From positions 4,192 to 68,191 of the forward strand of contig JADJOO010000020.1 of assembly GCA_016713725.1 (NCBI GenBank): a stretch of 64,000 nt of DNA, in the 5' to 3' direction. Origin of the DNA: Pseudomonadota bacterium (GTDB lineage: Bacteria; Pseudomonadota; Gammaproteobacteria; Steroidobacterales; Steroidobacteraceae). The translations under genes were made by a program, and so were the position numbers. The notes beneath the pieces were generated by a model. The model had not been told where the DNA came from, did not search any database, and worked only from the letters and a program-made list of their open reading frames with translations. Within the stretch, counting starts at the first letter, position 1. Each line of letters begins with the position of its first letter. Positions 12,480-53,552 of this stretch are shown piece after piece.

Positions 12480-13094
12480 ATGAGCTGCTGGGCGCTAGTA
12501 CCGATCAAGGCTCGTCCCGAGTGCAAGGGTCGGTTGTCCGGCTGGCTTGCGCCTTCGGAACGAATCGACATCGTGCGGGAGATGGTCGGACGCGTGCTGG
12601 CAGCCCTGCGGGATGCACCCTCGATCGACAGCATCGCCGTCGTGACACCCGAGCGTGACTGGTTGCGCCCCGAGGTGCTGGTACTCGACGACCCGGGCCG
12701 TGGTCTCAATGCGGCTCTCGATTCAGCTCGTCGCGAACTCATTGTGCGGGGCATCGACGAACTCGTCGTGCTGCATGCCGACCTGCCGTTCGTCACTGCG
12801 ACCGACATTGAGTTGCTGGTGTCCAGGGGTCGGCGCACCGGATTCGCGCTGGCGTCAGACTCCGCTTGCTCGGGCACCAACGCGCTGTATCTCGCGCCGC
12901 CGGCGGCCTTTCGTTTTTGCTTCGGCGTGGACAGTTGTCGTCAGCACCTGCAGGAGGGTGCCCGCCTCGGCCTGACGGCCGAACTCGTTCACACGCGTGG
13001 CCTCGAATTCGACCTGGATCGAGGCGAAGACCTTTTGCAACTTTGCGAACAGGGCGATGCGCGGTTCACGTCCTTGAAACTTCTGCCGGCTTGA
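12480..13094 (+). CDS. cofC: 2-phospho-L-lactate (or PEP/3-PG) guanylyltransferase CofC/FbiD
   Basis: ALVPIKARPECKGRLS, GRGLNAAL, HADLPFVT and SGTNALYLAPP motifs. The stop overlaps the fbiC ATG (TGATG). Confidence 0.8.
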   Translation: MSCWALVPIKARPECKGRLSGWLAPSERIDIVREMVGRVLAALRDAPSIDSIAVVTPERDWLRPEVLVLDDPGRGLNAALDSARRELIVRGIDELVVLHADLPFVTATDIELLVSRGRRTGFALASDSACSGTNALYLAPPAAFRFCFGVDSCRQHLQEGARLGLTAELVHTRGLEFDLDRGEDLLQLCEQGDARFTSLKLLPA

Positions 13095-15506
13095 TGGATA
13101 TGGCTGCAACCGACTCATTACGGCTGATCGACGCTGCCGCCGCGGGCCAACGGCTCGACAGTACGGCGGCGGCGCTGCTGGTGCATGCGCCGCTCGCATC
13201 GCTCATGCACACCGCCGAGGAGCTGACCCTGGCCGGCTTCGGTTCGACGGTCAGCTACTCGCGCAAGGTCTTTATCCCGCTCACACAGTTGTGCAGGGAT
13301 GTCTGTCACTACTGCACGTTCGCGAAGGCGCCGCGCCGCCTCGCGCAGCCCTACCTGTCGCCGGATGAAGTATTGGCGATCGCGCGGGCGGGCCAGGCCC
13401 ATGGTTGCAAGGAAGCACTGTTCACGCTGGGCGACAAGCCGGAATTGCGCTATGCCGTGGCTCGCCGCGCGCTCGCTCAGCACGACGCCGTAACGACACT
13501 CGAATACCTCGAGCGGATGGCAGTGTTGGTGTTCCGCGAGAGCGGCTTGCTGCCGCACCTCAATCCGGGTGTCATGAATCGCGAGGAACTCGCACGCCTG
13601 CGGCCGGTCGCAGCCTCGATGGGGCTGATGCTGGAGTCGGGCGCCGAGCGGCTGGCGATGCGCGGTGGCCCGCATTTCGGCTCGCCGGACAAGCAGCCGA
13701 CGCAGCGTCTAGCGACGCTGCGCGCGGCAGGTGAACTCAGTATACCCGTGACGACTGGCCTGCTGATCGGCATCGGCGAAACCCGCCGCGAGCGGCTGGA
13801 GTCGCTACTTGGGCTGCGGGCGCTGCACGAGGAGTTCGGCCACCTCGGAAATCATCATCCAGAATTTCCGCGCCAAGCCGGGGACTCGCATGGCCTCCGG
13901 CGCCGGAGCCGACGCTCGAGGAGCAGCTCTGGACTATCGCGGTCACACGATTGCTGTTTGGTCCTCGGATGTCGATCCAGGCACCGCCGAATCTTCAGCC
14001 CAATGCGCTGGTACCGTTGCGGTCCGCCGGAATCAACGACTGGGGCGGCGGGTCACCCGTGACGCCGGATCACGTGAACCCGGAGGCGCCGTGGCCGCAT
14101 CTTGCGGCACTGGAGCGCCAGACGGAGGAAGCAGGGCGGGAACTCGTCGAGCGTCTTGCAATTACGCCCGCGTACGTGCGCGATGCGGGTCGCTGGGCAG
14201 ACGAGGGCATGGCGCGGCACATCCGCCGCATGAGCGATGCGCGGGGTTACGCGCGAACGAATGCATGGTTTGCCGGATCGGCTTCAGCGATCCCGGATGA
14301 GGCGGCGAACTGGATGTCGGGCGGTCCGCGCACTGTGGCCGGTCGGGGACGCCTGACTTCGATCCTCGCGGCAGCGCAGGCCGGACGGGATCTAGCCGAA
14401 CAGGAGATTGTTGAACTCTTTACGGTCGCGGATCACGACCTTCCGGCGGTGCTTACGGCAGCCGATGAACTGCGCAGAGTCGCCGTCGGCGAGACGGTGA
14501 CATACGTCGTCAACCGCAACATCAACTACACGAACGTCTGCAACTACCGTTGCGGGTTCTGTGCCTTTCGAAGGGGCGGAGTGCAAGGGGCCTGCGTGGC
14601 CCTGCGTACGATTTGTCCCCTGACCGAGATCGCGGAACGGACGCGCGAGGCCGCTGCGGTGGGTGCTACGGAGGTCTGCCTGCAGGGCGGCATCCACCCG
14701 AGTTACACGGGCGAGACCTATCTTCGTATCGTACGCGCAGTCAAGGAAGCGGTACCGTCGATGCACGTGCACGCATTCTCGCCGCTCGAGATCCGACACG
14801 GCGCCGCGACGCTGGGACTTGAGCTGCGGGAGTATCTGTCGCGGCTCGCCGCTGACGGACTCTCGAGCCTGCCAGGGACCGCGGCAGAGATTCTGGATGA
14901 CGAGGTGCGTAGAGTCATCTGCCCGGACAAGCTGACGACGTCAGAGTGGCTGGAGACGGTAGCTGATGCGCATGCCGTGGGGCTCAGGTCGACCGCAACG
15001 ATCATGTACGGCCATGTGGACGCGCCGGTGCACTGGGCACGTCACCTGCTGCGAGTCCGCGCGCTGCAGGCAGCGACTGGCGGGATCACCGAGTTCGTGC
15101 CGTTGCCGTACGTCCACATGGAGGCCCCCCTCTGGCGCCGCGGTCTCACGCGTTCGGGGCCGACCTTCCGCGAGGCGGTGCTGATGCACGCGGTCGCGCG
15201 ACTCGTGCTGCATCCGCTGGTGACAAACATCCAGGTCTCGTGGGTCAAGATGGGGCCCGAAGGCGCGGCGCTGTGTCTGCGAGCCGGAGCCAACGACCTC
15301 GGCGGAACTTTGATGAATGAATCGATCAGCGCGCGGCCGGTGGCGTGCACGGTCAACTGCTGACCCGCGAGCAGCTCGCGGCCATTGCTGCTAGCCTCGG
15401 ACGGCCGATCCGACAGCGCACAACGTTCTACCAGAGCACTGAGCAGAAAGTGGCGTGTGGTGGTTCGCGTCGCGTCGCTGCTGCAGCCGCCGATTCGTTC
15501 GCCTGA
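13094..15506 (+). pseudogene. fbiC: Bifunctional FO synthase FbiC (CofG+CofH radical-SAM domains), at least 5 frameshifts as sequenced
   Basis: CofG half (CRDVCHYCTFA...) and CofH half (NYTNVCNYRCGFCAF..., GGTLMNESIS). Frame changes lie near 13850, 13900, 14570, 14620 and 15340. The C-terminus (...GRPIRQRTTFYQS...) ends at TGA 15504-15506. Confidence 0.8.
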
Positions 15507-15614
15507 ATTTCGACGTGACCTGCTTGAAATACGGCTACAACGCGTCGGCCGGTCCATGGTCTCGACACGGTCGGAGCATCAAGGCGCGATCTAATCTTTC
15601 GGAGCACCATCGGT

Positions 15615-16298
15615 ATGAATGAGGCGACCTTCCCTGTAGTTGCTGTCATCGGCGGCACAGGCAACCTTGGTCACGCCCTTGCCAGGCGCTGGGCGCAGGC
15701 CGGCTACACGCTGGTGCTTGGGTCGCGTGACTCCGTCCGCGCCGACGCCGCGGCGACGGCAATGCGAGATGCGGTTCCCAATGCCAGGGTGCGAGGCCTT
15801 ACGAATCGAGATGCAGCGCTTGCGGCCGATATCGTTGTTCTGGCCGTGCCGTACGCTTCGCAGGAGGCAACCCTCGATGAGATTCGGGACGCCGTACAAG
15901 GCAAGTTAGTGGTCGACACAACCGTGCCACTTGTGCCGCCGAAGGTCATGCGCGTGCAACTTCCTCCGGAGGGTTCGGCGGCAGTTCGAGCACAGGGACT
16001 CCTGGGGCCGGCTGTGACGGTCGCCTCTGCGTTTCACAGCACAGCCGCACATCGATTGGAGACCGATGACACGATTGATTGTGACGTATTGGTCTTTGGT
16101 GACTCAGGGAAGCGCGTGATCGCGTCATGGGAGCTCGTCTCGGCAGCGAGGCTTCGCGGCCTTCATGGCGGCGCATTGGCGAACTCGGCTGCCGCCGAGG
16201 CATTGACGTCGGTCCTCATCTTCATCAATAAGCACTATACAGCCGACGGGGCTGGCATCCGCATCACAGGAAAGCTGATCCCACCCGCACCAGGTTGA
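15615..16298 (+). CDS. npdG: NADPH-dependent F420 reductase (Fno/NpdG)
   Basis: VAVIGGTGNLGHALARRWAQAGYTLVLGSRD plus a family-like C-terminus, inside the F420 cluster. Confidence 0.8.
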   Translation: MNEATFPVVAVIGGTGNLGHALARRWAQAGYTLVLGSRDSVRADAAATAMRDAVPNARVRGLTNRDAALAADIVVLAVPYASQEATLDEIRDAVQGKLVVDTTVPLVPPKVMRVQLPPEGSAAVRAQGLLGPAVTVASAFHSTAAHRLETDDTIDCDVLVFGDSGKRVIASWELVSAARLRGLHGGALANSAAAEALTSVLIFINKHYTADGAGIRITGKLIPPAPG

Positions 16299-17074
16299 GT
16301 GTGATGGCCAGCGCGTCGCTGATTTTCCATGCGCTGCCCAGCATTCCGGAGATTGCGCCGGGAACCGACCTTGCGTCGATCGCGGAGCACGCACTGCTGG
16401 CCGCCCGGATCGAGGTGCGCGCTGGCGATGTACTGGTTTTCGCGCAGAAAGTCGTCTCCAAGGCTGAAGGCCGCTTGGTGCGGCTCCGTGACGTCCAGCC
16501 TTCGAGCCGGGCGCTGGAACTCGCAGCGCGCTGCCTGAAAGACCCGCGACTGGTGGAACTGGTCCTGGCCGAATCGAGCGAGGTGGTCCGGGTCGCGCCC
16601 AATGTCCTGGTGACCCGACACCGTTGTGGATACGTCATGGCCAATGCGGGCATCGATCATTCGAACACCGGTACGGCACCGGATGCCGGTGTGGTGCTGC
16701 TCCTGCCGATCGACGCTGATGCATCCGCGCGCGCGCTGTGCAGCGCGCTCCGAGCCCGGCTCGGCATCGCTCCGGGCGTGATCGTCAGCGACAGTTTTGG
16801 CCGGCCGTGTCGCATGGGAACGGTCAATGTCGCGCTGGGTGTGGACGGGTTGCCGTCAATCGTGGACATGCGTGGTGGGTGCGATCGCGACGGGCGCAGG
16901 CTGCAGGTCACTCAGGTAGCGATCGCAGACGCCATTGCTGCCGGTGCAGGCCTGGCCATGGGCGAGGCCGCCGAGGGAGCGCCGATCGTGCACGTGCGGG
17001 GCTTTGCGTCGACCGAGCCATGCAGTGACGGCCAAGCACTGATCCGCCCGGCGAAGGAGGACCTGTTTCGGTGA
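16295..17074 (+). CDS. cofE: Coenzyme F420-0:L-glutamate ligase CofE (single domain, no FbiB-type C-terminal nitroreductase domain)
   Basis: VFAQKVVSKAEGR, VMANAGIDHSN, VIVSDSFGRP.R.G..NVALG motifs. Overlaps the npdG stop and the cofD start. Confidence 0.85.
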   Translation: MSVMASASLIFHALPSIPEIAPGTDLASIAEHALLAARIEVRAGDVLVFAQKVVSKAEGRLVRLRDVQPSSRALELAARCLKDPRLVELVLAESSEVVRVAPNVLVTRHRCGYVMANAGIDHSNTGTAPDAGVVLLLPIDADASARALCSALRARLGIAPGVIVSDSFGRPCRMGTVNVALGVDGLPSIVDMRGGCDRDGRRLQVTQVAIADAIAAGAGLAMGEAAEGAPIVHVRGFASTEPCSDGQALIRPAKEDLFR

Positions 17075-18045
17075 CCAAGACTGCGAAAGTGCTCGCCATC
17101 TCGGGTGGCATCGGTGGCGCCAAGCTGGCGCTTGGTTTGCAGCGCGTGCTGCCGCCGGGCGACCTTGCCGTGCTCGTGAATACCGGCGACGATTTCCGGC
17201 ATCTCGGGCTCGCGATCTCGCCCGACCTTGATACGGTGCTCTACACATTTGCCGGCGTTGCCAATGCCGGGGCCGGTTGGGGTCGCGAAGGCGAAACCTG
17301 GAATTTTCTCGAGGAACTGCGTCGGATCGACGGCCCAGCCTGGTTCCAGCTGGGCGACCGCGACCTCGTGGTCCACGTCGAGCGGACGAGCCGGCTGGCC
17401 CTCGGTGAGTCACTCACTTCGATCATGGCCGCCCTCGGCCGCCGATTCGGCGTGCCGAGTGCGATCCTTCCGATGACCGACGACGCGGTGGCCACCCTGC
17501 TCGACACGGACGCCGGAGTGCTGGAGTTCCAGGAGTACTTCGTGCGCCGGCGTTGTGAACCGAGGATTCGTGCCGTGCGGTACGCAGGGGCCGCAACCGC
17601 TACCGCAAACCCGGCGTTGACCGGGCTGCTGGCGTCGCCGGAGCTGGAATGCGTGGTGATTTGCCCGTCGAATCCGTACCTGAGCATCGGACCGGTCCTC
17701 GCGATCGCTGGGTTGCGCGACGCCCTGGCCCGCTGCCCCGTCCCCGTCGTGGTGATCTCGCCGATCATCGGCGGGCGCGCGGTCAAAGGGCCGACGGTCA
17801 AGCTGATGCGTGAACTCGGTGTCGATGTTTCACCACGATCCATCACGGAGCACTATGCAGGCCTCATCGACGGCCTCGTGGTCGATTCCGAGGACATGGC
17901 GTTTGCATCGGCCACTGGGGTGCCTACGCTAGTGACGCCAACGCTCATGCAGACCCTTGTCGACCGCGAGGCACTGGCGCGGGCCGCGCTCGGTTTCGCG
18001 GCATCGCTGGCGGCCGCGCCGCGGTTGCCGAGAACTGTACCGTAA
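17071..18045 (+). CDS. cofD: 2-phospho-L-lactate transferase CofD/FbiA
   Basis: VLAISGGIGGAKLALGL...VNTGDDF.HLGL.ISPDLDTVLYT. GTGA overlap with cofE. Confidence 0.9.
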   Translation: MTKTAKVLAISGGIGGAKLALGLQRVLPPGDLAVLVNTGDDFRHLGLAISPDLDTVLYTFAGVANAGAGWGREGETWNFLEELRRIDGPAWFQLGDRDLVVHVERTSRLALGESLTSIMAALGRRFGVPSAILPMTDDAVATLLDTDAGVLEFQEYFVRRRCEPRIRAVRYAGAATATANPALTGLLASPELECVVICPSNPYLSIGPVLAIAGLRDALARCPVPVVVISPIIGGRAVKGPTVKLMRELGVDVSPRSITEHYAGLIDGLVVDSEDMAFASATGVPTLVTPTLMQTLVDREALARAALGFAASLAAAPRLPRTVP

Positions 18046-18197
18046 GCGGCTACGCCGCTACTTCCGCGTCTCCGTATCAGCCCGGCCAACCTGTGCAGCC
18101 TGGCTGCGCGCTTCACTATCCGCCGGCGACACTTTGACGATGCTTTCGTCGTCGCTGTTCCGCGCGCCGGTAGGACTCAGCCCGAGGAGTAGCCCCT

Positions 18198-18326
18198 GGC
18201 GATCGATCCAGTCGTTCTTCCCGAGCTTGGAAAGGCAGACACGCGCCCGGGAAGAACGACTGGATCGATCGCCTGCGGCACGGCGCCTGGGCTCGTCCTC
18301 GGCGCGCCGAAAACTGCGCACGGCGC
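18198..18326 (-). repeat. Two-hairpin repeat element, copy A (3' of the minus-strand TBDR gene)
   Basis: Perfect 26-bp stem (18198-18223 / 18248-18273) around a loop containing GCGCGTGTCTGCCTTTCCAAGCT (sense orientation), plus a 5' module at 18284-18326. The same loop and 5' module recur at 24171-24292. Confidence 0.7.
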
Positions 18327-18372
18327 ACGGTGCGTCGAGATGTGGCAACCCCAGCGTATGAGTCCGGTGGGC

Positions 18373-20463
18373 CTAAAACCTTACGGTCGCGGCAACCCGC
18401 AGCGTGCGCGGCTCCGCAGGATGGAAGTGAATGTCGGCGACGGGCTGCGATTCGCTGGGCAGCTGCGACTCGTAGAAGTAGCTGATGTCGCTGGCTTCCG
18501 CATCGAACAGGTTGAAGACCGACGCCATCACGCTCAGGCGTGGCGAGAAGCGGTAGCCGGCCTGCGCATTCACGGTCGAGGTCGAGTGCGAGCGTACGCT
18601 GTTGTCCTCGATCAGCGGGGCCGGGCCGAAGTAACGCCAGCGGGCGCCACCGAACCAGCCCAAGTCGCGCTGGATGCTGAGGCCGACCGACACGACGGTC
18701 TCCACGGCACCGGGAATGTAGTTGCCCGCGGGGTCGTACTCGGTGAACCGGGCATGCGACCACGAGTAGTCCGCGTCCAGGATCACCGTTTCGAACGGGG
18801 TCCAGTACGCGCCGAGTTCGACGCCATAGCGCCGGGTTGCGCGGCTTGGCTCGGTGATGCCGCCGTCACCGACGAACAGCAGTTCCGAGTCGATGTCCAG
18901 GTTCCACAAGGCGGCCGTCAACTGCAGGCCGGGCACAGCCGCGGTGCGGACGCCGATTTCCGTGCCGGTGGCCGGCACGATTGGATCGACGGGATCGGCC
19001 TGGGTAACTCCGTCCGTGGGATCGACGCGGATCGTCGTGCCGCGGGCGTCGTTGGTGTGAAAGCCGCGACCCGCGTTCAGGAAGACCTCCGTCTCCGCCC
19101 ACGGCCCCAGCACGACCGTCAGTTTCGGGCTCGCGATCGAATCGGTCTCGTCGCCGGAGTTGGCCGGGAGATCGCTGTCGACCGAGAAATCCAGGTAGTC
19201 GAAGCGGAGTCCCGCCTCCGTGCGCAGCCAGTCCGTCCAGCGCTGGTCATGGATGACGTAGGCCGAGTACTGCGCCTGGCGGACGTCGTCCTTGCGGATC
19301 GTCTCGAACCGCTCGCGGGCGAAGGTCCGGTACAAGGCGACCGGTGTGATGTCGTCCATGCGCAGTTCGGCGCCGGCGCGCAGTGAGCCGTCGAGCCCGT
19401 TCAACGAAGCCGGCAAGTCGTACTCGAAGTGACCGCCGTACACGCGGCGACTGTCGTACTGCTCGAACTGGTCGCCGTCGACCGGGTCGAGCGCGTAGGT
19501 GAAGTTCGAGAACAGGTCGAGGTGGTAGTCGATGGCGTAGGCCAGCGCCGACCAGCCGCGCCCGTCGTGCCGGGACCACGCGTCGAGCGACAGGCTGTAG
19601 CGATGCGACTCGCCGCCCGTGGTGTCGTCCACGTGACCGAAGCGCGGGATCAACCCGGCATCCACGGCCCGCTGCGGAACCTGGTCGGTGCTGTCCCAGC
19701 TGCCGTCGTAGCCCATGCCCGTGACGGCGAACCCGGCCTCGGCAGTGCCGCGGCTGTACTTGATGACCCCGCTGGTCTTCTGGAAATCCTCGGGCAGTGT
19801 CCAGGGCCCGTCGGTCTGCGACCAGTCGAGGCCCAGCAGCAGCGTCCCGCCCGCCACCTGCGGCGAGGCGCTGGCGAACAGCCGATAGTAGTTGTCCTCG
19901 CCGACCGTCAGGCCCAGCGTTGGCGCGCCGCTGTCGCGGATGTAGGAGATGCGCGCCGCGCCGGCCGCCGAGAAGTTTCCTTCTTCAGCAAAGTAGGGAC
20001 CCTTGCGGTATTGCACGGTATCCACCAGCTCGTGGACCAGGAAGTTGATGTCGGCGTACCCCTGGCCATGGGCGTGGGTCGGCATGTTCACCGGCACGCC
20101 GTCCACGTAGCTCGCAAAGTCGGTGCCATGGTCGAGGTTGAAGCCGCGCAGGAAATACTGGTTCGCCTTGCCGTCGCCACTGTGCTGCGTGACAACCAGC
20201 CCGGGTACGACCTCGAGCACTTCGCCGGGTCGCAGGACCGGCCGGCCCTGCAGCTGCGCACTCGTGACGATGCCTTCGCTCGCGGCCCGCGACTCGCCGA
20301 TCAGCCCGATGCGCTGGGCAGTGACCACGATCTCCTCGAGCGGGGTGCCGGTGGGAATGCCGGAGGCCAGGGCGCTGCCCGGCAATGCCAGGATGACGAG
20401 CGCTGCGGCGGTTGCCAGCGACGGTTGGCGCTGATTGCGTGGCATGGGCAGGCTGTCCATCAT
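18373..20463 (-). CDS. TonB-dependent receptor, probably nickel-regulated
   Basis: Signal peptide, plug (EEIVVTAQR, NQYFLRGFNLDHGTD) and terminal ...ATVRF. A NikR-type operator lies in its promoter. Confidence 0.9.
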   Translation of the reverse strand: MMDSLPMPRNQRQPSLATAAALVILALPGSALASGIPTGTPLEEIVVTAQRIGLIGESRAASEGIVTSAQLQGRPVLRPGEVLEVVPGLVVTQHSGDGKANQYFLRGFNLDHGTDFASYVDGVPVNMPTHAHGQGYADINFLVHELVDTVQYRKGPYFAEEGNFSAAGAARISYIRDSGAPTLGLTVGEDNYYRLFASASPQVAGGTLLLGLDWSQTDGPWTLPEDFQKTSGVIKYSRGTAEAGFAVTGMGYDGSWDSTDQVPQRAVDAGLIPRFGHVDDTTGGESHRYSLSLDAWSRHDGRGWSALAYAIDYHLDLFSNFTYALDPVDGDQFEQYDSRRVYGGHFEYDLPASLNGLDGSLRAGAELRMDDITPVALYRTFARERFETIRKDDVRQAQYSAYVIHDQRWTDWLRTEAGLRFDYLDFSVDSDLPANSGDETDSIASPKLTVVLGPWAETEVFLNAGRGFHTNDARGTTIRVDPTDGVTQADPVDPIVPATGTEIGVRTAAVPGLQLTAALWNLDIDSELLFVGDGGITEPSRATRRYGVELGAYWTPFETVILDADYSWSHARFTEYDPAGNYIPGAVETVVSVGLSIQRDLGWFGGARWRYFGPAPLIEDNSVRSHSTSTVNAQAGYRFSPRLSVMASVFNLFDAEASDISYFYESQLPSESQPVADIHFHPAEPRTLRVAATVRF

Positions 20464-20504
20464 GAACTCCCGGCTTCAACCGACGGGCGGTGCTCCGGGT
20501 CCGG

Positions 20505-20533
20505 AGACTATCCGGCGGTATGATGTTTATCAA
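20505..20533 (-). promoter_or_regulatory. Candidate sigma70 promoter of the TBDR gene (TTGATA-N17-TAGTCT on the minus strand)
   Basis: The -35 hexamer (20528-20533) lies inside the NikR-type palindrome. The -10 hexamer is at 20505-20510. Confidence 0.4.
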
Positions 20534-20545
20534 ATAAGTGCATAC
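20518..20545. promoter_or_regulatory. NikR operator-like palindrome GTATGA-N16-GCATAC
   Basis: One mismatch to the E. coli NikR operator GTATGA-N16-TCATAC. The arms extend as GGTATG...CATACC. It sits in the divergent TBDR/nikR intergenic region. Confidence 0.65.
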
Positions 20546-20571
20546 CCTAACCCGGCCGTGGAGGCCTCCAG

Positions 20572-21145
20572 ATGCAACGCACGACGATCACGCTCGACGA
20601 CGACTTGATGGAGCGGCTGGATGAGTTCATGGCGGATCGCCGCTACGCCAACCGCAGCGAGGCCATTCGCGACCTGGTGCGCGCCGGCCTCGAGCAGTCG
20701 ACCCTCGATGGCGCAGCCGACGCGCAGTGCCTCGGGGCGGCCATCTACGTCTTCGATCACAACGCCAGGGAGCTCGCGAGCCGGCTCACCCACGCAGCGC
20801 ACGATCATCACGACCTGTCGGTCGCGACGCTGCACGCACCTCGATCACGACAGCTGCATGGAAGTCAACGTCCTGCGCGGGCAAGTCGGCGATGTTCGTC
20901 ACTACGCCGATCACGTCATTGCGGAGCGTGGTGTCCGGCATGGGCGCCTCGTGCTGGTGCCTGCTGAATTTTCGACGGAAACCCATGCGCATGGCGGTGC
21001 GAAGCTTTCGCGACACTCGCATTTGCACGTCAAGCGATCCCTAGGCGGGGCTTCGCCTCATTGCTTGAATGGCCAGAGATCTCGTCGCAACGATCAAACG
21101 GGCGGACTGCGGATAACCGCAGGTCGCGGACCGCGCCCGCCCTGA
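20572..21145 (+). pseudogene. nikR: Nickel-responsive regulator NikR, one frameshift near 20835; 3' end uncertain
   Basis: RHH N-terminus MQRTTITLDDDLMERLDEF...NRSEAIRDLVR. The C-domain HDLSVATLH / HLDHDSCMEVNVLRGQVGDVRHYADHVIAERGVRHGRL continues in the frame of ORF 20621. Confidence 0.8.
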
Positions 21146-21216
21146 CCTAGACTTTCTTCACGAACGCCCGCTGGACACAAAGTCGCAGGACCCACCTCTG
21201 GGTCACGCTGCTGCTG

Positions 21217-21567
21217 TTGCCCGCCCTGGCGTGTCGCATGCTGGTGCCGCCTGGTTTCATGCCGGGCACCGGTGCAGATCATTCGCCCACGATGCAGATG
21301 TGCCACGGCGCCGGGCCGCTGCCGCAGGGCGCGCAATCGCCCGCAAAGGATGATGGACAGCGGCCTGGGAGTCCTGCGCATCACGAATCGCCTTGCGTCT
21401 TTGCGGCCGCCGGCACGGCTGCGCCACCACCGATCACGTTGGCGGTTCTGGATGGTCCCGCAACGCCAGACGCCATTCCGTCGCCACCGGACCTCGCCGT
21501 TGTCTTCCGGACACCGCATCGCGCCAACCCGCCCAGGGCGCCTCCCACCATCGTCAGCCCCGCCTAG
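21217..21567 (+). CDS. DUF2946-family protein (copper-uptake associated)
   Basis: LLLLPALACRMLVPPGFMP...MQMCH...HHESPCVF pattern, directly upstream of an OprC-like TBDR. The start codon is unclear (TTG 21217). Confidence 0.55.
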   Translation: MPALACRMLVPPGFMPGTGADHSPTMQMCHGAGPLPQGAQSPAKDDGQRPGSPAHHESPCVFAAAGTAAPPPITLAVLDGPATPDAIPSPPDLAVVFRTPHRANPPRAPPTIVSPA

Positions 21568-21815
21568 GGCTCGACTGCCCGTTTGAGGCTGGGCGCCTGC
21601 ATTGGCGCCCCGGCCTCGGCCCGCCGGGCATCCGCTGTCCTGCCCGTAGTTCCATCTCGACCGCTGCACACATGAGCGGCGGTCGTGGGCTGCGCATGGC
21701 ATCGCGATGAATCGGTGACAGCCAACCGCAACGACACCGGGCGGTGCTTGAAGGCGACCCAGCGGGGCCTCGGCAAAGCTCCCACTCCTTGATTTTGATT
21801 TTGGAGTCTGAAGAC

Positions 21816-24157
21816 ATGCGACCTCGTCCGATTGCAGTTACCGTGTTCCCTTGGCCCTCTACGCCGCCCAGGGTGTGGCGGCGGATAGTGCCCCCAACCT
21901 CGAAGAAATCATGGTCACGGCCCGGCGGATTCTCACGCCCGGCCTCGGCGCCATCGGCCTCGATGGCGCCGAGATTGCCCGCAAACGCGCCCGCACCAGC
22001 GACACCGCCAGTCTGCTCGCGGGCCTTCCAGGGGTCAGCGTCTATGGCGCCGGAGGAGTTTCCAGTCTGCCGGTCATCCGCGGCCTCGCGGACGACCGCC
22101 TGCGCACGCAGGTGGACGGCATGGACCTCGTGGCCGCCTGTCCCAACCACATGAACTCACCACTCTCCTATATCGACCCCACGGCCGTGGCCAGCGCCGA
22201 CGTTTACGCTGGCGTCACGCCGGTGAGCGTCGGCGGCGACAGCATCGGCGGCAGCATCGTGGTGCGTTCTGCGGACCCCGCGTTCGCGCAGCCTGGCTCT
22301 CATCTTGTGCAGGGTGAAGCCGGCACGTTCTATCGCGGCAACGGTGATGGATGGGGCGGAAATCTCTCCGGCACGTTCGCTACGGAAACCTTCAGCCTCA
22401 ACTACACCGGCGCCTTCGCCCAGGCCGACAACTACCAGGCTGGCGACAGCTTCAAGCACTACACGTTCACCGGTCGGGCGGGCCACACGCTACCCACCGC
22501 CGAAGTCGGATCCACGGCCTACGACTCCCGCAACCAGACAGTCCGGCTTGCATGGCGCAGTGGCAGTCACCTGCTGGATTTCAGTTACGGCTTCCAGGAC
22601 ATCCCGTACGAGCTCTATGCCAACCAGCGCATGGACATGGCGGAGAACCAGAGCGACCGGTTCAACCTTGCCTACACCGGCGGTCTCGACTGGGGAACCC
22701 TGCAGGCGCGGGTGTACTACCAGCACACCGAGCACGAGATGGACTTCGGCGACGACAAGCGCTTCTGGTACGGACCGGGACAGCCGCCAAGCGGGTCAGG
22801 CGGGGATACAGCCCTGAACGGCTCACCCTGCTCGCCGATCTCCGGCTCGATGATGGTGAGCGGCCAGATTGTCGGTTGCGCTGCCGGCATGCCGATGATG
22901 ACTGACGGCAGGAATACGGGAGTCTCCGTCAGCGCGGCGATCCCGCTGGCCGAGCAGAGTCTGCTGCGCGTCGGTGGCGAGTATCAGGAGAATCGGCTGG
23001 ACGACTGGTGGCCGCCCTCCGGTGCGGGCATGTGGCCGTACGATTTCCTGAACCTGAACGACGGACAGCGTGACCGCTACGCCGCTTATGGTGAATGGGA
23101 GATTGGCAACGAACGCTGGACGCATATCCTGGGCGCCCGCTTTGAAACCGTGAACATGAGTGCAGTCCCGGTTCACGGCTACAACCTCGACTCGTATCCG
23201 ACCAGCGGCGTTGGCGGCATGGGCAACCAGACGCGAGACGCGGCGCTGTTCAACGCCAGCTCACGCGGCAAGACGGACGACAACTGGGACCTCTCATGGA
23301 TCGGCCGCTTCGTACCGGGCGCGACTCAGGCTTACGAGATCGGCCTGGCGCAGAAGACCCGCTCGCCCAACCTGTATGAGCGCTACACCTGGTCCACGTG
23401 GCAGATGGCGGCGTTCATGAACAACTTCGTCGGCGACGGCAACGGCTACGTGGGGGACGTGAACCTGAAGCCGGAGGTGGCTCGCACAGTGAGCCTCACG
23501 GCCAACTGGCACGATGCCGATTCCGAGCAATGGAGTGCCAAACTGACACCGTACTACACGGACGTGCAGGACTACATCGACGCGGTGCAATGGGATGCCG
23601 TGACGAACACGCGCCGCGCCGTGCCCGTGGTCGGCAACTTTACCGTGCTCCGGTACGCCAACCAGTCCGCCCAACTCTACGGCGCAGACCTTGCGGCTGA
23701 CTACCGGCTGACAGACACGACCGATTACGGGAAGTTCTCAGCCCAGCTCGTGGCGAGCTACACCAGGGGCAGGAACGAGGATACGGATGGCAACCTCTAC
23801 AACATCATGCCGCTGAACGCCAAGCTGGCTTTCACGCAAGAACTCGGCTCGTGGCGCAATGCCCTGGAGGGCGAATTCGTGGCGGCGAAGGATGACGTCT
23901 CCGCGGTGCGCAACGAAATGCAGACCGCGGGCTACGGTCTTGCGCACCTGCGCAGCCGCTACGAGCGAGCCACCTGGAGCGTGGAGGTCGGCATCGAGAA
24001 CCTGTTCGACCGTTACTACGAGCTGCCGCTGGGCGGCGCTTACGTCGGTCAGGGCACGACGATGACGGTCCCGCCCGTGCCCAACCAGCCGCAATGGGGC
24101 ACTCCGGTGCCCGGTGCGGGCCGTTCAATATATGCGAGCGTCAACATGAAGTTCTAA
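21816..24157 (+). CDS. OprC/NosA-like TonB-dependent copper receptor (frame break in the signal-peptide region near 21845; ORF intact from 21851)
   Basis: ATG at 21816 with GGAG upstream encodes MRPRPIAVTV... and joins LALYAAQGVAADS. Plug EEIMVTARR; CPNHM (CxxxM) and HEM (HxM) motifs; terminal ...SVNMKF. Confidence 0.8.
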
Positions 24158-24170
24158 AGCCAGCCTGCGA

Positions 24171-24292
24171 GCGCCGTGCAATTTTCCGGCGTGCCGGGAA
24201 ATTGCTCAGGCGCTGAATCGCGAGCGTTCGGTCCGGGGCCTTTCCCGGAGCGCGTGTCTGCCTTTCCAAGCTCCGGGAAAGGCTCCGGATCG
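24171..24292 (+). repeat. Two-hairpin repeat element, copy B (3' of the plus-strand OprC-like TBDR gene)
   Basis: 12-bp hairpin 24178-24189/24194-24205 (loop CGTG). Then a 22-bp stem 24229-24250/24271-24292 around the same loop sequence as copy A. Confidence 0.7.
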
Positions 24293-24393
24293 GACGCCCG
24301 CTATCACTCCTTGAGCACTCGTCCCGCATACCCAAAGCAGCAACACGCCCAGCAGCGACGAACAACCGCTACTGGACGCGTCAGGTGCGCCGG

Positions 24394-25842
24394 TCAGGCC
24401 TGCTGCCGGATCCGCGAATGCTTGTAGCCGTACAGGAAGTAGATGAGGAAGCCGAGTCCAGTCCAAAGCGCCAGCCGGATCCACGTGTCGTGCGGCAGGA
24501 AGAGCGTCATGGCGAGGCAGATTGCCACGCCGGCCACGCCGGTGAAGGTGGCGAACGGCACGCGGAACGGACGCGGCGTATCTGGCTGCGTGCGGCGCAG
24601 CACGACAACGCCGGCGCACACCGCGCTGAATGCCAGCAGGATACCGATCGAGATCAATTCGCCAAGCACGTCGAGTGGAAAGATGCCGGCAAAGAACGCA
24701 GCGACCAAGCCGGTGATGATCGTAGCAACGTGCGGCGTGCGGTACTTCGGATGCACCTTCTGCATCGACGGCGGCAGCAGGCCATCGCGCGACATTGCCA
24801 TGAAAATGCGCGGCTGGCCGAGCAGCGACATCAGGATCACGGAGGTGAGGCCGACGATCGCACCGATCTTGACCGGCAGGCCGAGCCACTTCAGCTCCGG
24901 ATGGGCGTCGAGCGCGACCGCGACCGGTGCGGCGACGTTGAGTTCCGTGTACGACACCATGCCGGTCATCACGGCAGACATAAGGACATAGAGCACCGTC
25001 GAGATGAGCAGTGCCGCGATGATGCCCCACGGTACGTCGCGCTGCGGATTGCGGGCTTCCTGCGCCGTCGTCGCGGCCTGGTCGAAGCCGATGTAGGCAA
25101 AGAAGATGATTGCGGCGCCCTGCATGATGCCACTGAAGCCGAATTGTCCGGAGGTGCCTGTATTGGCGGGAAGGTAGGGCTGCCAGAGGTCGGGTGTCAC
25201 GTATTTGATGCCGACCGCGATGAACAGGACGATGATCAGGATCTTGATGATCACCATCACGTTATTGACGCGGGTCGACTGCTTCACGCCGACGTAACAC
25301 ACCCAGGTGAGCAGCGCGACGATCAGCACGGCCGGCACGTTGACCAGGGCGCCCGTCCTCACCAGGTGATTTTCCGCGCCTTTGCCAAGCGGCGCATTGG
25401 TGAGCGCGTCGGGCAGGTGGAGGCCGAATTCGGCGAGCAGGTTGACGACGTAGCCCGACCATCCGACCGCGACGGCAGCGCCCGACATCACGTATTCCAG
25501 CGCGAGGTTCCAGCCGACGAACCAGGCGACACCCTCGCCGAGCGTCGCGTACGTATAGCTGTAGGCGCTGCCCGAGATCGGGATCATCGAGGCCAGCTCG
25601 GCATAGCAGAGCGCGGCCAGACCGCAGCCGATGGCGGCCACGAGGAAGGCGAGGGTGACGGCGGGGCCAGTGTGCTGGGCGGCCACGGTGCCCGTCAGGA
25701 CGAAAATGCCGCTGCCGATCATCGAGCCCAGGCCGACGGAGGTCAGCGCTCGGCGGTCCAGTACGCGATTCAGCTTGGGCCCGGATTCGATTTCGCGAGT
25801 CATCGCAGCCACCGATTTGCGGGCTGCCAGCTGTTTCAGCAC
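24394..25842 (-). CDS. APC-family amino acid permease
   Basis: 12-TM profile with SVGLGSMIGSGIFVLTG and AELASMIPISGSAYSY motifs. Confidence 0.9.
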   Translation of the reverse strand: MLKQLAARKSVAAMTREIESGPKLNRVLDRRALTSVGLGSMIGSGIFVLTGTVAAQHTGPAVTLAFLVAAIGCGLAALCYAELASMIPISGSAYSYTYATLGEGVAWFVGWNLALEYVMSGAAVAVGWSGYVVNLLAEFGLHLPDALTNAPLGKGAENHLVRTGALVNVPAVLIVALLTWVCYVGVKQSTRVNNVMVIIKILIIVLFIAVGIKYVTPDLWQPYLPANTGTSGQFGFSGIMQGAAIIFFAYIGFDQAATTAQEARNPQRDVPWGIIAALLISTVLYVLMSAVMTGMVSYTELNVAAPVAVALDAHPELKWLGLPVKIGAIVGLTSVILMSLLGQPRIFMAMSRDGLLPPSMQKVHPKYRTPHVATIITGLVAAFFAGIFPLDVLGELISIGILLAFSAVCAGVVVLRRTQPDTPRPFRVPFATFTGVAGVAICLAMTLFLPHDTWIRLALWTGLGFLIYFLYGYKHSRIRQQA

Positions 25843-25916
25843 GAAGCTCTCCCCCTTTGCGAATTTGGCCCAAGTCTCTCACAGCCGCCCGGGCAGCCGC
25901 ATCCCGTTGCCTTATC

Positions 25917-27422
25917 ATGGAGGCAATGACGCCGAAGACGCCAGAAGCCAGCGCCTCGCCCGACTGGACCAGGCCACGTCCCATCGACACCACGTATTGG
26001 GTCGTGCCGGGCCGGTTCCTGGTGGGAGAACATCCGGGCTCGCGGTCACGCGCCCGGTCGATGGATCGGTTGCGCCGGTTCCTCGAGGCCGGCATCACCT
26101 GCTTCATCGACCTGACCGAGCCGGACGAAAGTTCCGCCTATGACCGGCATTTGCCGTTCGAAACATCGTCGGGACGGCGCATCGACTATCGGCGCCAGCC
26201 GATTCCGGATCACGGCGTACCGGCCGACCGCGCCACCATGGACCGTATCCTGGCGATGCTGGACGACGCCCTCTCAACCGGCCACGGCGTGTACCTGCAC
26301 TGCCGGGCCGGCATCGGCCGCAGCGCGACAGTCGCCGGCTGCTGGCTTGCCGAACGCAATCCGGGCGGGGGTGAGGCAGCGCTCACCGAGCTGGGCGACT
26401 ACTGGCGACAGTGCCGGCAATCGAGGTCATGGCCGCAGGTGCCGGAAACCAGCGAGCAGGAGGAATTCGTACGCAACTGGCAACCGTTGCGGCCAGGGGT
26501 GAAAGGCGTCGCAAAATCGTCGGGGCCGGCCAGGGGTCTTGCGCTGGAGCAGCGCGTGCGCGGGGGTTGGTTCGGGCTCGCGCTGGGCGATGCGCTCGGC
26601 GCAACGAGCGCAGCCGCGGCAACGAGGAACCTGCCGCTGGCATGGACACAGCACACGTCGCTCGCGCTCTGCCTCGCCGAAAGCCTGAACGCCCTCGGGC
26701 GCAGCGATGCGCGTGACCAGATCGAGCGCTACTGGCGTTGGTTCAAGGATGGACACCTGACGGCTACGGGTCAGCCCGGCGAAACCGGCGCGTCGCCCGA
26801 TGTCGCGAAAGCGCTGGCGACCTTCCGCTGGCGCGGCTTGCCGGTGGCCGGTTCGCACGATCCGAAGGACGCCGCCGCGACGAGCTTGCCGCGCGTCCTC
26901 GCTGCCGCGCTGTTTGCGGGTAACAATCCCGCAGGTGCCATCGCACTTGCTGCCGAGTGTTCGCGCACCACCCATCAGTCGCCCCTGGTCCTCGACACCT
27001 GTCGCGCCTACTCGGCGATGTTGCTTTGCGCACTGCGCGGGCAGCCGGCGCACGACTGGTTGCGGGCCGTTCCCGAACCCCTGCCCGGGTGCTGGACAGC
27101 CAAGCCGTTGCGCAAAGACGTTCAGGCTGCGGTTGCCACCGCGCCGCCTGCCGAAGGCGCCACGGCGACCGGTGGCACGATCGACGTGGTGCAGGCGCTC
27201 GCACTCGCGCGTCGTATCGCCGGCGACGCAAAAGATTTCGATGCCGCCATCGTTGCGACAAGACGCAACGCGGGCGACGAGGCAGCCCTGGTCGCAGGGC
27301 TCGTCGGCACGATGTTCGGCCTGCAGCACGGTATGGACGTGCTGCCCCCGGATGCAAGCTCGGCCGGCTCGCGGGCCGCACGCACCTCGAAGTTACGGTC
27401 GATCATTGCGTTGCGCGCCTGA
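25917..27422 (+). CDS. Fusion protein: dual-specificity/Cys-phosphatase domain plus ADP-ribosylglycohydrolase (ARH)-like domain
   Basis: HCRAGIGRS P-loop (CX5R) with upstream PIPDHG. The C-terminal ARH fold is marked by GLALGDALGA, SRTTHQSP and LVAGLVGTMFG. Confidence 0.75.
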   Translation: MEAMTPKTPEASASPDWTRPRPIDTTYWVVPGRFLVGEHPGSRSRARSMDRLRRFLEAGITCFIDLTEPDESSAYDRHLPFETSSGRRIDYRRQPIPDHGVPADRATMDRILAMLDDALSTGHGVYLHCRAGIGRSATVAGCWLAERNPGGGEAALTELGDYWRQCRQSRSWPQVPETSEQEEFVRNWQPLRPGVKGVAKSSGPARGLALEQRVRGGWFGLALGDALGATSAAAATRNLPLAWTQHTSLALCLAESLNALGRSDARDQIERYWRWFKDGHLTATGQPGETGASPDVAKALATFRWRGLPVAGSHDPKDAAATSLPRVLAAALFAGNNPAGAIALAAECSRTTHQSPLVLDTCRAYSAMLLCALRGQPAHDWLRAVPEPLPGCWTAKPLRKDVQAAVATAPPAEGATATGGTIDVVQALALARRIAGDAKDFDAAIVATRRNAGDEAALVAGLVGTMFGLQHGMDVLPPDASSAGSRAARTSKLRSIIALRA

Positions 27423-27444: not shown

Positions 27445-28482
27445 GTGAAACCTCGTCGGCGCCGGTTGCGCGAACCTGCGTGGACGCGGCTCGACGATGA
27501 GGCGCTGCTCGACATGCGCCTCTGCGACCTGCGCCTGTCGCTTGCACGGTCGGGCCTCGACCAGCCGGTGCAACGCCTCTACGAGGAATTGCGGCTCAAG
27601 GGCATCCTCTTCCGTCCGCATGTCTGGCTGTCCGAAGAATGGTTCTCGCCGGACGGCGTTCCCGGGATCGCCGTGCCGTTCTTCCTGGCGCATCCGCGGC
27701 TGCAGCGCCTCGAACGGCGCTTCATGCGCGAGGTCGAGGGTGGCAACGACAAGTGGCTGATGCGCATCCTGCGCCACGAAACCGGGCATGCGATCGACAC
27801 TGCGTTCGGGCTGCGGCGGCGCAAGACCTGGCGCGACACGTTCGGCAAGGCCTCGCGCCGATATCCGTCGCGGTATTCCCCGCGGCCAGCCAGCCGCCGG
27901 TTCGTGCTGCACCTCGGCCACTGGTACGCGCAGAGTCATCCCACCGAAGATTTCGCCGAAACGTTCGCCGTCTGGCTGCCGCGCAGATCGCGCTGGCGCA
28001 GCCAGTACGCCGGCTGGCCCGCGCTGCGCAAGCTCGAATACGTCGACGCGACGATGCGCAACCTGCATGGCAAGCGCGCGGTGTGCCTGAACCGCGATGT
28101 CGTCGAGCCGCTGGCCGAGAATACCCGCACGCTGCGCGAACACTATCGGCGCAAACAGCGGCGTTACGAACTCAACACCGCGCGCACTTACGATCGTCGC
28201 CTGCTGCGCGTGTTCGGCACCGCAGAGGATCACCCGTCCGGGCCGCAGGCCAGCAGGTTCCTGCGCAAGGTGCAGCCGCAGGTCGAGCGGTTGATGATTC
28301 GTCGCGCGAGAATGCACCCGTACCTGGTCCAGCACGTCCTGAAAATAGCGACCCAGCGCGCACGCCGCATGAACCTGCGGCTCAGTCACAACCAGCGCGA
28401 CACCAAGCGTGCGGTGCTGGTGATGCTCGAGCGCATCATGCTTGAGATGTTGCTGCGGGACCGCGAGAACTACGCCCTATGA
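27445..28482 (+). CDS. Putative zinc metallopeptidase (HExxH), conserved partner of the downstream ATP-grasp gene
   Basis: LRHETGHAID motif and HPTEDFAETFAVW. GTG at 27445 lies 22 nt after the upstream stop. The stop overlaps the next start (ATGA). Confidence 0.7.
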   Translation: MKPRRRRLREPAWTRLDDEALLDMRLCDLRLSLARSGLDQPVQRLYEELRLKGILFRPHVWLSEEWFSPDGVPGIAVPFFLAHPRLQRLERRFMREVEGGNDKWLMRILRHETGHAIDTAFGLRRRKTWRDTFGKASRRYPSRYSPRPASRRFVLHLGHWYAQSHPTEDFAETFAVWLPRRSRWRSQYAGWPALRKLEYVDATMRNLHGKRAVCLNRDVVEPLAENTRTLREHYRRKQRRYELNTARTYDRRLLRVFGTAEDHPSGPQASRFLRKVQPQVERLMIRRARMHPYLVQHVLKIATQRARRMNLRLSHNQRDTKRAVLVMLERIMLEMLLRDRENYAL

Positions 28483-29510
28483 CCAAGAAACCCCTGCGCG
28501 TGCTCGTGCTCGTGCACGAAACGCTGGTGCCTCCCGAGTCCACCGACGGCTACTCTCCACAGGAGGTCGACGAGTGGCGCACCGAGTACGACGTGACCTC
28601 GTCGCTGAAGGCGATGGGGCACGAGGTGAGGGCGCTTGGCATGGGCGACAACCTGGCCGAACTGCGCTCCACGATCATGGAGTGGAAGCCCGACATCGCC
28701 TTCAACCTGCTCGAGGAATTCCAGGGCATCGTCACGTACGACCAGTACGTGGTGGCCTTTCTGGAGCTGATGCGGCTGCCGTACACCGGCTGCAACCCGC
28801 GCGGCATGATGATCTCGCGCGACAAGGTGCTGTCGAAGCAGATTCTCGCCTACCACCGCATTCCCACCGCGCGGTACGCGCTGCTGCCGCGCAAGCGCCG
28901 CTATGTCGAGCCGCGCAAACTCAAATTCCCGCTGTTCGTCAAGTCGGCCACCGAGGATGCCTCGCTCGGCATCTCGCAGGCCTCGATCGTCTACGACGGC
29001 CAGAAGCTGCGGGAGCGAGTCGAGTTCATCCACGAGCAGACGAATTCGGATGCTCTGGTCGAGGAGTACATCGAAGGCCGCGAACTCTACATCGGCGTGA
29101 TGGGCAACGAGAGGCTGACGACCCTGCCGGTGTGGGAACTCAATTTCGGCACGCTGCCCGACGTGATGTCGATCGCGACGCGCAAGGTGAAGTGGGACCG
29201 CAAGTACCAGGTGCGGCACGGCATCGGCACGGGTCCCGCCCTTGATTTGCCGCCCGGCCTGTCGCCGCGGCTCGCCACACTCGTGCGGCGCATCTATCGC
29301 GCGCTGTCACTCAGCGGGTATGCGCGAATCGACTTGCGCTTGAAGCCGGACGGCGGGGTGTACGTGCTCGAGGCAAATGCGAATCCCAACCTCGCCCAGA
29401 TCGAGGATTTCGCGACCTCGGCGCTCGCTTGCGGCATGGAATACGACGCCGTGCTGGAGCGGATCCTGCAGTACGGGCAGAACTACGACGCGGCATGGCG
29501 GCAGTCCTGA
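28479..29510 (+). CDS. ATP-grasp protein, D-alanine--D-alanine ligase family
   Basis: LRVLVLVHE...KPDIAFNLLEEF..., FPLFVKSATEDASLGI, EEYIEGRELYIGV, ARIDLRL...YVLEANANPNL. Confidence 0.85.
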   Translation: MTKKPLRVLVLVHETLVPPESTDGYSPQEVDEWRTEYDVTSSLKAMGHEVRALGMGDNLAELRSTIMEWKPDIAFNLLEEFQGIVTYDQYVVAFLELMRLPYTGCNPRGMMISRDKVLSKQILAYHRIPTARYALLPRKRRYVEPRKLKFPLFVKSATEDASLGISQASIVYDGQKLRERVEFIHEQTNSDALVEEYIEGRELYIGVMGNERLTTLPVWELNFGTLPDVMSIATRKVKWDRKYQVRHGIGTGPALDLPPGLSPRLATLVRRIYRALSLSGYARIDLRLKPDGGVYVLEANANPNLAQIEDFATSALACGMEYDAVLERILQYGQNYDAAWRQS

Positions 29511-29623
29511 CTACGCGCCGATGATCTGAGGCGTGCGAGTGGCGGCGGCGCCTTGTCGCGAGCGCGAGTGTGCCTCTTGGCCCAAGCTCAGGGACAGGCG
29601 CCTGATCGCACGCCTGGATCGGT

Positions 29624-30022
29624 CTAGAGCGTGCGGCCCGTCTTCTGGAAGTGCGTGCGCTCGAAGATCGTCTGGCAGTCGATGCAGCGCAACGCCTGTG
29701 GCGTGAGGTTCAGCCGCTTCACATCGATCGGCTTGTCGCACGCTTCGCAGACGCCGTAGCTGCCATCCGCCACTCGCAGCAGCGCTGCGTCGATCGCGCG
29801 CAGTTCGTCGAGGTCGCGATCGATTTCGGCGAGGCCGACGTCCACGATCAGGTCGGCGAACGATTCGTCCTCCAGTTCCCGCACCGAGTCGGCGATCTGC
29901 AGATAGTGTTCCGAATCGCTCCGGATCAGCGCCTGGCGGATTTCTTCGCGCAACTGGATTTGCCGCGCGCGCATGGCCGTTTGCAGCGACTCGAGCTGCT
30001 TGTTCTGGAGGTTGCGAGTCAT
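29624..30022 (-). CDS. DksA/TraR-family C4 zinc-finger protein
   Basis: CEACDKPI...CIDC zinc finger after a coiled-coil region. ATG at 30022 is 7 nt from AAGGAAG. Confidence 0.75.
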   Translation of the reverse strand: MTRNLQNKQLESLQTAMRARQIQLREEIRQALIRSDSEHYLQIADSVRELEDESFADLIVDVGLAEIDRDLDELRAIDAALLRVADGSYGVCEACDKPIDVKRLNLTPQALRCIDCQTIFERTHFQKTGRTL

Positions 30023-30133
30023 CGCCATCTTCCTTGGGACACTGCCCAAGGATCGGACGCGATCCGCGCCACAGATATAGGGAAGATGCGAAATTCATTG
30101 CGCCAAATGCGGCTGGTCCTGCGGATGGCCGTG

Positions 30134-53460: not shown

Positions 53461-53552
53461 GGGACATTCACCTATTTCCACTCATTTCCAAACGCAGTGC
53501 TGGTGGTGCATGGACGGTTGCCGGAAATAGGTGAATGTCCCCTATTTCTCAG
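53450..53552. repeat. Perfect 30-bp inverted repeat with a 43-nt spacer
   Basis: CCTGAGAAATAGGGGACATTCACCTATTTCC (53450-53479) pairs exactly with 53523-53552. The left arm contains the aspS stop codon and the right arm the ATG of the next gene. Confidence 0.85.

Follow-up and report, generated by a model that had tools for sequence, protein, structure and literature searches.

Features of the locus

The window, by which we mean the whole 64-kb stretch of DNA that was analysed, contains three copies of one repeat family as detected with a covariance model: A, B and a decayed copy C. Copy B lies between the stop codon of a TonB-dependent receptor gene on its 5' side (21851-24157, plus strand, TAA at 24155-24157) and the stop codon of a convergent amino-acid permease gene (BcaP-like, 24394-25842, minus strand, identified by Pfam and synteny). 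This spacer contains both hairpins of copy B, hp1 and hp2, and the permease stop codon faces hp2. The receptor had originally been called OprC-like, an identity that was not upheld: the copper-receptor model gave 109 bits against a cut-off of 472, and haem-receptor models also remained far below their cut-offs.

All parts of copy B are read on the plus strand. The element starts 6 nt past the receptor-gene TAA with a 5' box, CCTGCGAGCGCCGTGCAA (24163-24181), which was recognized from the sequence and the family consensus. The hairpin hp1 (24178-24205) has a 12-bp stem and is composed of GCAATTTTCCGG-CGTG-CCGGGAAATTGC; the single U.G pair reported earlier for this hairpin was read at T24185:G24198, in accordance with sequence and folding. 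An outer helix around hp1 is formed by GCGCC at 24171-24175 and GGCGC at 24209-24213. The linker GCTCAGGCGC (24204-24213) corresponds to conserved columns of the family. The stem of hp2 (24220-24301), delineated by sequence, folding and a covariance model score of 112.9 bits, is about 32 bp long and carries three U.G pairs and one A.C. Its 18-nt apical loop GCGTGTCTGCCTTTCCAA (24252-24269) was found to be invariant in the family by comparison of copies.

The arms of the 22-bp core stem of hp2 (24229-24250 and 24271-24292) are in register (i+j = 48521), and the only two non-Watson-Crick appositions within them are G24231:T24290 and G24237:T24284, exactly as the original prediction had it. Its statement that such pairs are G.U only on the gene-sense strand is correct for this core. 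It does not extend to the whole stem, where T24228:G24293 adds a U.G and A24223:C24298 an A.C. The complete hp2 thus has three wobbles (24228:24293, 24231:24290 and 24237:24284) against one mismatch on the plus strand, and the reverse on the minus strand, where A24223:C24298 is a G.U pair. Folding both strands of copies A and B, a check that had been proposed with the prediction, showed a higher stability for the strand that carries the loop motif (the motif strand). For copy B the energies were -95.5 vs -83.8 kcal/mol (z-scores -9.5 vs -7.2), and for copy A they were -94.9 vs -88.4 kcal/mol (z-scores -8.9 vs -6.8). The use of DNA parameters (-52.9 vs -47.5 and -56.5 vs -53.2) left the ranking unchanged for both copies.

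Copy A is a full element on the minus strand (18178-18335), identified by folding, loop identity and a covariance model score of 107.1 bits. It comprises hp2 (18192-18279) with its loop (18227-18244), hp1 (18295-18314) and a 5' box at about 18315-18335. As described previously, its hp1 is an 8-bp hairpin with two U.G pairs, GUUUUCGG-CGCG-CCGAGGAC. Copies A and B are identical in the 18-nt loop and the closing pairs, their stems have changed in a compensatory manner, and the similarity runs in the 5' direction via the linker CTCAGGCGC and hp1 to the box GCGCCGTGC. Two occurrences each of the hp2 arm and of the 20-nt loop were counted in the 64-kb window, with none expected from 100 shuffles, so this recurrence is far beyond chance. 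The other TonB-dependent receptor gene (18373-20463, minus strand) has copy A on its 3' side, and this copy faces cofD (17071-18045, plus strand). Copy C (29512-29634, plus strand), with the loop GCGAGTGTGCCTCTTGGCCCAAGC, is decayed, as indicated by a covariance model score of 31.9 bits and a weak fold z-score of -2.7. It sits in a convergent spacer between genes at 28479-29510 (plus strand) and 29624-30028 (minus strand), and its orthologue in locus L037 retains the exact loop.

Some further features of the window were noted in passing. Copies A (minus strand) and B (plus strand) lie head-to-head across a 6-kb block of receptor, NikR-like and receptor genes (18178-24318). Dimers of the family face each other likewise, but over 0.1-0.4 kb instead of 6 kb; the receptor block may be an insertion into a head-to-head dimer that existed previously, or the product of a rearrangement there. 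A cofD homologue was not present in any of the fetched family loci. The ORF at 20621-21145, between the two divergent receptor genes, has a match to NikR that is confined to the nickel-binding C-terminus (residues ~70-119); the DNA-binding N-terminus is absent in frame and the gene may be frameshifted or mis-started. The region 12866-18045 holds a coenzyme F420 biosynthesis cluster in an apparent gammaproteobacterium, in which CofD was confirmed by Pfam and ORFs resembling FO synthase, NADPH-dependent F420 reductase and CofE were identified by eye only. ORF 25857-27422 encodes a fusion of a dual-specificity phosphatase-like domain and an ADP-ribosylglycohydrolase domain (Pfam). At 53450-53552, just 3' of ORF 51680-53386, 43 nt are enclosed by a perfect inverted repeat of 30 bp, CTGAGAAATAGGGGACATTCACCTATTTCC, and the region is AT-richer than its neighbourhood. 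By its look it is a small MITE-like insertion, unrelated to the hairpin family, and no copy of it occurred in the 116 fetched loci.

A lineage-restricted intergenic repeat family

Family loci were collected by scanning one genome per species for the exact 18-nt loop. This gave at least 116 loci with at least 184 matches, on which all family counts rest. Among the matches listed, at least 180 are exact-loop copies of the family, distributed over at least 112 loci, and 175 of 180 are intergenic. Four loci in other phyla (L009, L023, L055 and L071) have no hairpin and were discarded as chance matches to the loop. The carriers among the matches listed are MAGs from soil and sludge, almost all of the Steroidobacteraceae type, with taxonomic labels of Gammaproteobacteria or Proteobacteria and in some cases of Steroidobacteraceae; the MAG of locus L110 is labelled Burkholderiaceae. 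About 20 MAG species, again among the matches listed, have the family dispersed over numerous intergenic spacers, and most genomes have many loci.

The full unit is built from a 5' box, hp1, a linker, hp2 with a stem of ~30-35 bp, the invariant loop of 18-20 nt and a short 3' tail. Its consensus is (GGTG)ACGYTGCNTGCGCCGTGCGA - hp1 - GCTCAGGCGC - N7 - CAAGCG - hp2 - TGCAAC, where ACGYTGCNTGCGCCGTGCGA is the family consensus of the 5' box. The variable hp1 often reads TTTTCGG-N4-CCGAAAA. A degenerate second unit consisting of loop plus right arm frequently trails the full unit, and short forms consist of hp2 alone, some of them beginning directly behind a stop codon.

A search of Rfam returned no family at the gathering threshold, and the matches at a relaxed E-value were all to generic long hairpins (miRNA precursors), with scores far under the threshold. 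There was no match in the plasmid collection searched, and a full-text literature search yielded no paper with the loop sequence and none on Steroidobacter together with REP. The best reading of these data is that the family is a mosaic intergenic repeat of the REP/REPIN/BIME kind, present in high copy number, restricted to one lineage and previously undescribed.

Conserved pairing around a fixed loop

The covariance model was built on an alignment of 130 distinct copies among the matches listed. Standard pairs occupy 96.6% of the stem cells in this alignment, compared to 75.7% after shuffling and 29-43% if the partner is slid. Changes on both sides of a pair were found at 26 of the 27 stem pairs, and the covariation score was 0.58 against 0.17. 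Covariation across the family was also found for hp1. Loop invariance in the 130-copy alignment follows by construction from the exact-loop scan, but among the matches listed 57 family-type hairpins were recovered via the linker, and of these 56 have an intact loop core and 39 the full 18-mer. Furthermore, almost all long hairpins in the fetched loci bear the loop. The stems covary freely around a constant loop, box and linker. With about 26 stem pairs covarying freely, it is the pairing that is conserved and not the sequence of the duplex.

This pattern bears on two possible modes of action. The combination of covarying stems and fixed unpaired segments is the usual signature of a structured RNA. 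A transcript in the sense of the motif would fold the two hairpins, of which the loop would be read by a putative RNA-binding protein or complementary RNA. The element could then act as a 3'-end or intercistronic barrier, or insulate the gene whose stop codon faces hp2 against read-through or antisense transcription. We hold this to be the main rival of the explanation favoured below, though rather unlikely. If the RNA were a plain stabilizer hairpin, an invariant 20-nt loop would not be needed. In addition, a consensus promoter and terminator scan detected no conserved promoter 5' of the box and no U-tract past hp2, and inspection of the 5' box by eye gave a fit to neither sigma-70 nor sigma-54 spacing.

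The second possibility is a site in double-stranded DNA, either palindromic and bound by a protein or extruded as a cruciform, with the loop as a recognition sequence in the duplex. An invariant centre of 18-20 nt between inverted repeats is reminiscent of the BIME-1/RIP elements, which have a conserved IHF site between inverted REPs. The free covariation of the stem pairs argues against a duplex site, as do the wobble counts given below, and we consider it very improbable.

Strand bias of the wobble pairs

The wobble bias of copy B persisted in the larger comparison that had been called for. Over the 130 copies, among the matches listed, the ratio of G.U to A.C appositions in hp2 is 130:29 on the loop-motif strand; in hp1, across the family, it is 12:1. 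Of the hp2 stem positions, 19 lean towards G.U, one leans towards A.C and two are tied. A census over 40-nt arms that includes the flanks gave 166:122, as compared to the 130:29 of the structure-based count. A bias of this kind is also seen in recent changes: across 22 groups of elements that are orthologous or were copied recently, changes by a single step to non-Watson-Crick pairs were distributed 20:8 between G.U and A.C in the stem and 7:11 beyond it. When the 130 copies were folded with DNA parameters, the motif strand came out as the stabler one in 119; with RNA parameters it did so in 81.

A double-stranded site should tolerate G.T and A.C equally. The asymmetry of the wobbles argues against a symmetric palindrome or cruciform and for a single strand of fixed polarity, and this part of the original prediction, that the element is not a DNA palindrome, is supported by the counts for both hairpins. 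Its other part, that the element acts as RNA transcribed with the receptor gene, was not borne out. Tolerance of G.U on one strand, also in the changes between orthologues, does agree with action as RNA, but G.T is the mildest mismatch in DNA too, so RNA is not singled out and the bias cannot separate RNA from single-stranded DNA.

The bias does not follow gene sense either. With gene contexts assigned by a codon-usage gene caller, the G.U:A.C ratio was 78:10 in convergent spacers, 9:4 in co-directional spacers with the element in sense, 20:7 in co-directional spacers with the element antisense, and 4:2 in divergent spacers. Since the same bias is found whatever the sense of the neighbouring genes, it belongs to the strand of the element itself and not, as had been proposed, to the gene. 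The equal bias in copies that are antisense to both neighbours, for which no obvious motif-sense transcript exists, also speaks against action as RNA. Transcription-linked deamination of the non-template strand would be expected to cause a bias of opposite sign for the typical orientation. The motif strand showed no bias with respect to local GC skew (15/27) and no correlation with the majority gene strand. The lack of a bias relative to GC skew counts against single-stranded DNA coupled to replication, which might have predicted one.

Placement and polarity

Among the matches listed, 86 of the classified copies lie in convergent spacers and 4 in divergent ones; co-directional spacers hold 53, of which 28 are antisense and 25 sense. 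The background spacers used for comparison numbered 97 convergent, 389 co-directional and 109 divergent. Polarity towards gene ends and depletion in divergent spacers tie the element to transcription, which favours a function as RNA. On the other hand, single copies in co-directional spacers are not sense more often than antisense (9 vs 12, four of the nine representing one orthologous locus), which does not.

Of the neighbouring copies at a distance of up to 1 kb, among the matches listed, 52 pairs are head-to-head and no pair is tail-to-tail. If the element were an RNA acting as a simple terminator, tail-to-tail dimers with each copy next to its own gene would be expected. Another 11 neighbour pairs are tandem loop-plus-arm units with a period of 57-59 nt. 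The distance from the loop to the opposite-strand stop codon on the hp2 side is 60-174 nt (10-90% range, n=133), and that on the 5' side is looser, ranging from 44 to 677 nt. Within dimers the spacing varies from 106 to 421 nt and the central sequences are unrelated. Each copy thus appears to be anchored hp2-first to its own gene end. The copies in the window obey this rule, with hp2 of copy B facing the permease gene and hp2 of copy A facing cofD. Two sets of head-to-head copies that are 1.3-1.6 kb apart (L021:3967-5567 and L049:600-1915) enclose small genes, which by eye encode a HigB/RelE-like toxin (L021) and a host-attachment-like protein (L049), neither of them transposase-like; they are further examples of cargo between facing copies.

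GC-rich hairpins that are enriched at gene ends and between convergent genes could also be a family of intrinsic (Rho-independent) terminators. However, neither hp1 nor hp2 is followed by a T-run on either strand, as judged from the consensus and the window copies, typical terminators have much shorter stems, and the hairpin nearest to a gene is usually antisense to it. A terminator family is for these reasons very doubtful.

A further possibility, close to what was originally proposed, is that the element is a receptor-specific 3'-UTR RNA of the OprC-like gene that acts on mRNA half-life or on the metal response. Copies A and B are indeed both in sense and 3' of TonB-dependent receptor genes, with the NikR-like ORF between these genes. 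However, the same element occurs beside unrelated genes at more than 100 loci, the receptor is only generically TonB-dependent, and both window copies follow the family rule in pointing hp2 towards the other neighbour, cofD or the permease gene. Furthermore, loci L039 and L109 from other species have the permease (95% amino-acid identity), the spacer and the entire copy B in common with the window. Synteny with the window stops inside the copy B 5' box, and neither a receptor nor a cofD homologue was found within these two loci. The copy B orthologues thus keep the permease without the receptor, which largely refutes a receptor-specific role and leaves it extremely improbable.

Conservation in place, replacement and spread

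The three orthologous copies in the window, L039 and L109 differ at ~9% of the columns in hp2 and at ~35% in the adjacent spacer. The upper stem is perfect in L109, and the window copy and the L039 copy each have a different C-to-T change in the right arm that produces a G.T apposition. At one stem position the window has G:C, L109 has A:T and L039 has A.G. A short-form copy that lies in sense in the 95-nt spacer of two co-directional genes has 3 variable positions in 72 nt over five species, and third codon positions vary in the genes around it. That a sense copy filling such a spacer is almost invariant in five species would suit an RNA element. Some copies are conserved in place far better than the neighbouring spacers, which suggests a host-level function at individual loci that a purely selfish model does not predict.

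In one case the stem was apparently exchanged as a whole. The regions L017:3150-3480 and L040:2250-2600 are 99% identical in the flanks, the 5' box and hp1, and differ by an unrelated block of ~100 nt, comprising the hp2 arms and the 3' tail, around an identical loop. From this alignment the difference looks like a cassette-style replacement. Other apparent stem replacements at orthologous sites were rejected, being different tandem units (gain or loss) or cases with non-orthologous flanks, and L017/L040 is the sole clean case.

Two head-to-head hp2 modules, separated by 107 nt, are enclosed in a composite element that is bounded by 22-bp terminal inverted repeats, GGGAAGCTCTGCACAGGTCCGC. Its copies in the MAGs CAWJXS01 and CAVVBC01 occupy at least 10 loci (L001, L018, L019, L025, L027, L057, L063, L064, L065 and L067), are nearly identical to one another and often abut a stop codon. 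This composite MITE has spread recently.

Proposed mode of action

The explanation that we favour, with about an even chance of being correct, is that the element is a single-stranded substrate of fixed polarity of which a putative partner reads shape and loop, most likely as single-stranded DNA during mobilization. The element would work as a folded single strand with the polarity of the motif, and the putative trans-acting partner would recognize the shape of the hairpin together with the loop sequence. Recognition would most likely take place in single-stranded DNA in the course of a REPIN-like, strand-specific mobilization. Such mobilization would explain the wobble bias, since copies with G.T appositions would propagate and copies with A.C would not. 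A search for a RAYT or other transposase in ~0.96 Mb around the copies, done by tblastn with an approximate E. coli YafM query and a regular expression for the catalytic motif, found none; as the expected yield was only ~1, this absence does not decide the matter.

Transcription entering a copy from the 5' side, which for copy B would mean read-through out of the receptor gene, would let these hairpins form in RNA as well, where they might act as a 3'-end barrier. This role would be a general property of the family and not that of a receptor-specific regulator. Mobilization as single-stranded DNA and punctuation at the RNA level are not mutually exclusive.

A bolder and unlikely view is that the repeats are a new class of element that is defined by shape and loop: an invariant 20-nt apical loop on drifting or swappable stems, read on one strand and placed with fixed polarity at gene 3' ends. 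Elements of this class might serve as a genome-wide RNA insulator or punctuation mark with a loop-binding factor, or as substrate of a loop-reading enzyme for single-stranded DNA that is unrelated to RAYTs and, for example, nicks in the loop. An enzyme of this sort would account, in addition, for the replacement of hp2 in the manner of a cassette and for the tandem units that run from loop to loop.

For REP-like repeats it is still debated whether they act as DNA or RNA and whether they are parasites or tools of the host. The family described here is an unusually clean handle on these questions, having one invariant loop in many copies, stems that record the strand, strict polarity, copies frozen over species-level times and at least one wholesale swap. 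Counting wobbles against A.C mismatches separately for each gene context is simple and could serve as a test of other repeat families as well. For the annotation of this window, the message is that the hairpin 3' of the receptor gene should not be taken as a metal-responsive regulator.

Comparison with known systems

Integron attC sites and the ends of IS200/IS605 elements are single-stranded DNA hairpins that are recognized in folded form with one polarity; in attC sites the structure is conserved and the sequence varies. The present family is similar in that a folded single strand of one polarity is presumably recognized. It differs from attC, where conserved boxes at the base of the stem are combined with a variable loop, which is the opposite of the arrangement found here. 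The 3' flank TGCAAC fits the RYYYAAC core poorly, and the reverse complement GTTGCAR departs from GTTRRRY at two positions by eye. A Pfam scan of six ORFs near copies A and B identified no integrase, no TnpA lies nearby and there is no cassette array. Integron attC sites are defined by R''/L''-L'/R' boxes with a GTTRRRY core, extrahelical bases and a cassette array with an integrase, and on these observations the family was rejected as attC.

Like MITEs, the elements are short, non-coding and dispersed, and the composite element resembles MITEs by its 22-bp terminal inverted repeats. The hp1-hp2 unit, in contrast, has unlike ends and no terminal inverted repeats were seen, and a non-systematic look revealed no target duplication; the unit was rejected as a MITE on account of its unlike ends.

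The BIME mosaics of E. coli and the BOX, ERIC and SMAG-type repeats are modular, exist in full and short forms, occur at gene ends and in convergent spacers, and can form RNA hairpins in either orientation. The family shares with them the modular build from few motifs, the full and short forms, the tandem sub-units and the placement. It is distinguished by the absence of any sequence relationship, the strict head-to-head arrangement (52:0), the strand-specific wobbles and the invariant loop of 18-20 nt.

The family behaves like the REP/REPIN-RAYT systems (PMC3116915, PMC3337134) in several respects. These repeats too are high-copy extragenic hairpins of ~90 nt and short imperfect palindromes, with inverted arms that carry compensatory changes, fixed inverted doublets, higher-order clusters and vertical persistence at orthologous sites. 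REPINs are long hairpins in which compensatory changes are common, and their folding was predicted to occur in single-stranded DNA or mRNA (PMC3116915). The distribution of conserved positions is different: in the family described here the loop is invariant, the foot of the stem is semi-conserved (CAAGCG..GATCCGG) and the stems are free, whereas classical REP sequences show the reverse. Furthermore, the family is without a GTAG-type tag and carries an extra 5' module composed of the box and hp1.
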